Under the pieces are notes generated by a model, which was not told the origin of the DNA, did not search any database, and saw nothing but the letters and a program-made list of their open reading frames with translations. A stretch of 64,000 bases of DNA from Escherichia phage 55. The DNA is taken from sequence record OQ599310. The stretch is one strand, 5' to 3'. A program made the translations under genes and the position numbers. Below are positions 48,298 through 48,983 of the stretch, piece by piece; the first letter of the stretch is position 1, and every line of letters begins with the position of its first letter.

Positions 48298-48528
48298 ATG
48301 TCTACTGAAACTATCGAAAAACTGCAGTCTGAAATCGTTACTCTGAAATCTCGCATTCTTGATACTCAAGACCAAGCAGCTGCTATCCAGCAAGAATCTC
48401 AACAACTTGGTAGTGCTCTTGCTAAAATCGCTAATCTGGTTGGTATCACTGGCGAATCAGTTAAGATTGATGACCTGGTAGAAGCAGTACGTGAACTTGT
48501 TAAAGCTGAAACCACAGAAGAAGAATAA
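48298..48528 (+). CDS. 57A: tail fiber assembly chaperone gp57A
   Basis: 76 aa coiled-coil; synteny. Confidence 0.85.
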
Positions 48529-48983
48529 TGAAATTTGAGGACTTTTCACAAGGCCTCTACGTCGCAGCTAAATTTTCAGAATTAACACTTGATGCGCTGG
48601 AAGACCTCCAGCGCAAATTAAGAATTCCTAATCCAGTACCACGTGAAAAGCTTCATTCAACAATTTGTTATTCACGTGTAAACATACCATATACTATATC
48701 TAGTGGTAGTTATTCTGTTGCCGAATCAGGACACTTTGAGGTATGGAAAACTGACGACGGCGCTGTACTGGTTTTAGTTCTTGATTCTGAATATCTTAGA
48801 TGTCGTCATCAGTATGCACGAGCTTTAGGTGCTACTCATGATTTCGACGACTACACTCCACATATAACGTTATCATATAACGTTGGCCAACTATCATTCA
48901 GTGGTGATGTAGCTATTCCGGTTATTCTCGACCGTGAATACAAAGAACCCTTAAAACTAGATTGGGCCGAAGATCTAAAATAA
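48528..48983 (+). CDS. 57B: gp57B-like protein with two H-x-T/S motifs (2H phosphoesterase-like)
   Basis: 151 aa; LHSTI and PHITLS motifs; position after 57A. Confidence 0.7.

Follow-up and report, generated by a model that had tools for sequence, protein, structure and literature searches.

The gene considered here lies in a window of 64,000 nucleotides, the whole stretch of Escherichia phage 55 DNA that was analysed (sequence record OQ599310). Gene 1, encoding a dNMP kinase (47559-48293), is followed on the plus strand by 57A (48298-48528), an open reading frame (ORF) for a tail-fibre chaperone that matches PHROG 1002 with E=8e-26, by the orthologue of T4 gene 57B, here called acb1 (48528-48983), and by ipI (49061-49348), an orthologue of IPI that is 87% identical to T4 ipI. 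The acb1 ORF, counted from ATG to TAA with the stop codon included, is full length, carrying neither a frameshift nor a premature stop, and encodes 151 aa. The order gene 3, gene 1, 57A, 57B and ipI is that of T4, and the adjacency of 57A and acb1 is also found in distant T4-like phages of Acinetobacter, Aeromonas and Vibrio. The nearest DNA matches are Tequatrovirus genomes, vB_Eco_NicPhage (99.1% over 2.2 kb) and JK45 (Tequatrovirus jaykay).

The TAA stop codon of 57A and the ATG start codon of acb1 have one base in common (TAATG), which suggests probable co-transcription and translational coupling of 57A with acb1. Downstream, the 77-nt spacer between acb1 and ipI holds a perfect 12-bp hairpin (49006-49032, plus strand) that has no U-tract; the spacer has a folding energy of -16.8 kcal/mol (z = -3.3), equalled by 0 of 200 shuffled sequences. 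This hairpin may act at the end of a transcript or in its stability. Overlapping the hairpin, at 48998-49026, is a promoter-like sequence, TTTACA-17-TACTAT, that carries a TG extension. A scan for intrinsic terminators around acb1 found none after the gene and did not call the 49006-49032 hairpin, while a sigma-70 scan around acb1 returned weak consensus matches at about chance level (10 versus 6.9 expected). A late-promoter-like TATAAATA box is located at 47936-47943 (plus strand), inside gene 1 and about 360 nt upstream of 57A/acb1. Across the window this box is enriched, with 19 occurrences found and 7.7 expected.

Further observations concern the genes beyond acb1. In some records ipI is annotated as a nuclease inhibitor, so that two anti-defence genes, acb1 and ipI, stand side by side. 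Just downstream of ipI, an ORF of 87 aa (49417-49680, plus strand) has an N-terminal leader in common with IPI (MKTYKEFI..STLSE, 12/19 identical), and beyond this leader its sole match is PHROG 13302, a family of unknown function. In T4 that position is without a gene, and JK45 labels the counterpart hypothetical. The leader looks like a T4 capsid-targeting sequence, suggesting that the ORF may encode a further injected internal protein and possibly an anti-defence factor. At 51873-51966 (plus strand), ARAGORN called a tRNA-Lys with anticodon ttt that, at 94 nt, is unusually long for a tRNA; either the call may run too far or the tRNA may contain an insertion. It adjoins ordinary tRNA-Met and tRNA-Arg genes at 51186-51342.

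Two H-x-T/S motifs can be read directly from the acb1 product, LHSTI at residues 42-46 (48651-48665, plus strand) and PHITLS at residues 111-116 (48858-48875, plus strand), as had been noticed in a first-pass annotation of the sequence, which took them as typical of 2H phosphoesterases. The distance from histidine to histidine is 69 residues, as in T4 Acb1 (H44 to H113). We estimated how often such a pair arises by chance. Two copies of the loose pattern H-x-[ST] occurred in 12.5% of shuffled 57B sequences (p = 0.125) and in 9 of the 76 window ORFs that encode 100 aa or more, whereas two copies of the strict pattern [LIVMFP]-H-x-[ST]-[LIVMF], with the flanks usual in 2H enzymes, were obtained in 0.17% of shuffles and, among the same 76 ORFs, in 57B alone. 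As the loose pair is not significant, the motif argument for 57B needs evidence from homology. Such evidence comes from 34 homologues reaching down to 30% identity, in which H43, T45, H112 and T114 are invariant, as is P111. Conservation of the two histidines had been named beforehand as a point on which the 2H proposal could fail, and both H43 and H112 are kept throughout.

Sequence comparison points to a specific member of the 2H superfamily. The Pfam family PF23474 (Acb1) matches the window protein with 197.4 bits (cut-off 27), residues 8-149 covering model positions 1-144 of 144. Compared with the sequences of solved structures, residues 9-148 match PDB 7T26/7T27, Acb1 of Erwinia phage FBB1, with E=4e-59. 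The scan against NCBIfam, which has no model for the Acb1 family, matched no family. The window protein aligns without gaps to T4 57B, NP_049750.1, with 129 of 151 residues identical (85%) and 22 differing. NP_049750.1 is the accession that was named Acb1 after activity-guided fractionation of a T4-infected lysate (Hobbs 2022, PMC9117128). In total, 1471 phage records encode a homologue, 56 of these at 99% protein identity or more.

In order to compare functional positions, we aligned the window protein with T4, FBB1 and 21 further homologues. All 9 published functional residues are the same as in T4: Y11, H43, T45, W73, F106, H112, T114, E140 and W146, corresponding to Y12, H44, T46, W74, F107, H113, T115, E141 and W147 in T4 numbering. 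More specifically, LHSTI contributes the catalytic residues H43 and T45 and PHITLS the catalytic residues H112 and T114, and the ligand pocket keeps both its stacking aromatics (Y11, W73, F106 and W146) and its adenine-specific glutamate (E140). None of the 22 substitutions touches a published functional residue. W146, which is kept in 21 of 24 homologues, belongs to the C-terminal lid, residues 144-151 of the window protein (48957-48980, plus strand; T4 145-152, with the lid as described in PMC9117128).

The fold is consistent with this assignment. An AlphaFold2 model was built from the alignment of 34 homologues and compared with the PDB by Foldseek. The model has a mean pLDDT of 89.2, with low confidence only in the first 6 and the last 4 residues (148-151); at the C-terminus, the low confidence agrees with a lid that would be flexible without ligand. 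The best Foldseek match is 7T26 (TMq 0.87, TMt 0.96, rmsd 1.0 Å over 136 columns, 62% identity) and the second is 7T27 (TMt 0.92, rmsd 1.6 Å), followed by the phosphodiesterase of Burkholderia phage BCSR5 with TM 0.6-0.7. After these come E. coli LigT, Thermus TT0787, a plant CPDase and the coronavirus and rotavirus 2',5'-phosphodiesterases, a group of matches with TM of about 0.45-0.55, rmsd of 5-8 Å and 12-17% identity, in which the LigT structures 5LDI/5LDM, together with 4QAK and 1IUH, have E values of 1e-5 to 1e-3 and TM of about 0.5. These remote matches indicate membership of the 2H superfamily and not of the LigT family. Structure prediction had likewise been named beforehand as a point on which the proposal could fail, and the model superposes on 7T26 as a 2H fold. 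The reading of 57B as a 2H phosphoesterase with the H-x-T motifs as its active site is thus borne out by the invariance of the tetrad, the superposition on 7T26 and the remote LigT matches.

Taken together, these data make us highly confident that the 57B ORF encodes Acb1, the anti-CBASS 2H phosphodiesterase of T4-like phages. The gene is already known, being a close orthologue of a protein characterised biochemically, structurally and genetically. Acb1 is a metal-independent phosphodiesterase whose reaction goes via a 2',3'-cyclic phosphate, and its catalytic HxT/HxT tetrad was named in the same study, where T4 H44A/H113A was catalytically dead (PMC9117128). The pocket of the enzyme is U-shaped and encloses a cyclic di- or trinucleotide beneath the C-terminal lid (residues 145-152), which is ordered only when ligand is bound; ligands with more than 3 bases are excluded (PMC9117128). 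In T4 Acb1 the bases are stacked by Y12, W74, F107 and W147, and the adenine N6 is read by E141; straining of the adenosine lets its 2'-OH attack the 3'-5' bond at the HxT/HxT tetrad in a two-step reaction, and the linear product carries a 3'-phosphate (GpAp) (PMC9117128).

The demonstrated substrates of Acb1 are the cyclic di- and trinucleotides of CBASS and its demonstrated phenotype is CBASS evasion (Hobbs 2022), while cGG, cA4 and 3'2'-cGAMP are not cleaved (Hobbs 2022, PMC9117128). Activity appears about 15 min after infection, and T4 lacking acb1 grows normally in hosts without CBASS, its replication being more than 300-fold poorer where CBASS is present (Hobbs 2022, PMC9117128). Expression of 57B/acb1 is middle to late, and the HIDEN-SEQ transposon screen found the gene dispensable on K-12 and depleted on a CBASS host, that is, conditionally essential.

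On the strength of the 85% identity and the conserved residues, we infer that the window protein cleaves cyclic nucleotides and evades CBASS. In this proposal the orthology, the fold and the residue conservation come from the present analysis, and the chemistry and the phenotype come from the published T4 and FBB1 work. The protein would be made from the 57A-57B transcription unit in middle to late infection. A cyclic ligand would sit in the U-shaped pocket with the C-terminal lid closing over it, Y11, W73, F106 and W146 stacking on its bases and E140 reading the adenine N6. H43, T45, H112 and T114 would then catalyse, without metal, an attack on the 3'-5' bond by the 2'-OH of the adenosine. 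The ring would presumably open through a 2',3'-cyclic phosphate, whose hydrolysis would leave a linear product with a 3'-phosphate. Destruction of the signal would keep the CBASS effectors from being activated, and the phage would escape abortive infection.

Alternatives to Acb1 with the T4 activity were also considered. The 22 differences from T4 Acb1 could have shifted the substrate range, for example towards cGG or 3'2'-cGAMP or to avoid the Panoptes decoy nucleotides, or the enzyme could have a second activity, as a 2',3'-cyclic phosphodiesterase acting on the ends of cleaved RNA. All known specificity residues are unchanged with respect to T4, no result of the analysis favours either possibility, and we give them little credence.

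The first-pass annotation had read the motifs differently, as spaced in the manner of LigT-like 2',3'-cyclic phosphodiesterases and RNA ligases, and had suggested, together with rnlB, a capacity for RNA end-healing or repair, possibly against host anticodon nucleases. In its full form, this explanation would make 57B a LigT-like RNA 2',3'-cyclic phosphodiesterase healing tRNA or other RNA ends for Rnl2 after anticodon-nuclease attack. The window does encode a true Rnl2, the product of rnlB (14167-15174, plus strand; PF09414 RNA_ligase and PF18043 T4_Rnl2_C), but 34 kb separate this gene from 57B, it belongs to a different transcription unit, and the two genes show no link. Another TATAAATA box was seen at 14149-14156, on the opposite strand and just upstream of rnlB.

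The 2H fold itself, and E. coli LigT among the distant hits of the structure comparison (TM about 0.5, E about 1e-4 to 1e-5), are what such an enzyme would present; however, the LigT superposition has an rmsd of about 7 Å at 14-16% identity, against 1.0 Å and 62% for Acb1. We also found a weak match to PF13563, 2_5_RNA_ligase2 (E=0.014), but at 15.9 bits it is below the cut-off of 27 and spans residues 72-131 only, and assignment to this LigT-like family was rejected. Apart from this sub-threshold match, the Pfam scan of 57B returned no LigT-type model. The claim of a LigT-like enzyme thus holds for the superfamily fold and fails for the family.

The label 'RNA ligase' carried by PHROG 755 also speaks for RNA repair, as does the Acb1 reaction, which itself hydrolyses a 2',3'-cyclic phosphate intermediate (PMC9117128). 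Against it, the residues of the cyclic di-/trinucleotide pocket and of the lid are all conserved, the published pocket leaving no room for more than 3 bases, and T4 without acb1 is impaired only when CBASS is present (PMC9117128). Hydrolysis of RNA 2',3'-cyclic phosphate ends or 2'-5' ligation by Acb1 is not reported in the Acb1 literature cited here.

LigT-type CPDases open 2',3'-cyclic phosphates to 2'-phosphates, as opposed to the 3'-phosphate that Acb1 leaves, and T4 repairs PrrC-cut tRNA-Lys with Pnkp (pseT) and Rnl1 (gene 63) and is not known to use 57B or Rnl2 for it. We consider the RNA-repair explanation very improbable: the gene is the T4 57B/Acb1 orthologue, neither the suggested partnership with rnlB nor a role against host anticodon nucleases finds support, and both the substrates and the phenotype demonstrated for Acb1 belong to CBASS.

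Least credible of all is a diverged or inactive Acb1, a pseudo-enzyme or altered-substrate allele kept only through its operon position behind 57A, for although 15% of residues differ from T4, some natural Tevenvirinae have a disrupted acb1 (e.g., Bas43) and Panoptes selects for its loss, the ORF is intact over its whole length, every catalytic and ligand-contacting residue is retained, and the 56 phage records at 99% identity or above point to purifying selection.

Most database records name 57B 'RNA ligase' or 'hypothetical protein', the former label being found in PHROG 755, in the T4 RefSeq entry (NC_000866) and in many records of T4-like phages, while at least one recent record names the gene 'anti-CBASS Acb1-like protein'. 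For 57B the 'RNA ligase' label is a systematic misannotation, with no ligase evidence behind it, and it appears to stem from the distant resemblance to LigT and not from any assay. A better name would be 'anti-CBASS protein Acb1, 2H cyclic-oligonucleotide phosphodiesterase'. What the locus holds is a well-characterised anti-defence enzyme and not a new component of RNA repair.

An intact acb1 predicts that the phage can overcome many CBASS systems, and it may also blunt type III CRISPR systems that signal through cA3, as suggested without test by Hobbs et al. It further predicts sensitivity to type II Panoptes, a guard system that detects cA3 depletion. Acb1 has since proved a liability against guard systems: type II Panoptes restricts those Tevenvirinae whose acb1 is intact, and mutants that escape it inactivate acb1, while the evidence for such a liability is mixed in the case of type I Panoptes. 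The predictions on CBASS and Panoptes matter for forecasts of host range and for the choice of therapeutic phages.

Compared with known systems, the window protein resembles E. coli LigT/ThpR and the other 2H enzymes (5LDI, 4QAK, 1IUH) in its 2H fold, its two H-x-T/S motifs and a metal-independent chemistry involving 2',3'-cyclic phosphates. It differs from them at the level of sequence and structure (14-16% identity, rmsd of about 7 Å, TM of about 0.5) and in substrate, which is RNA>p ends for the LigT-type enzymes and cyclic oligonucleotide rings for Acb1. As far as the account given in PMC12064943 extends, the poxvirus cGAMP phosphodiesterases have the same phosphoesterase fold as Acb1, aligned active-site residues and a lid, and in a recombinant phage the poxvirus enzyme can take the place of acb1 (Hobbs et al., Cell 2025, per PMC12064943). 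These enzymes come from eukaryotic viruses and have an N-terminal lid. The BCSR5 phosphodiesterase (PDB 9Q2G/9Q2Y, deposited as 'Anti-CBASS protein Acb1') also has a 2H fold with a lid and is detected by sequence with E=0.002, but it is larger (165 aa), has 17-18% identity in the structural alignment and represents a distant branch of the family.

Much closer in sequence is FBB1 Acb1 (7T26, apo; 7T27, with 3'3'-cGAMP), which has about 60% identity (59-62% depending on the alignment) and the same tetrad. FBB1 Acb1 carries F at the position of T4 W74, Y at that of T4 F107 and a one-residue insertion after position 77, and at all three places the window protein is T4-like and not FBB1-like. With T4 Acb1 it shares 85% identity in a gapless alignment, its length to within one N-terminal Met and the same neighbours. 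The differences are the overlap of 57A and acb1, which is 4 nt in T4 and 1 nt (TAATG) in the window, and the 22 substitutions, all of which lie outside the published functional residues. The catalytic tetrad, the stacking aromatics, the adenine-reading Glu and the C-terminal lid are identical to those of T4 Acb1.
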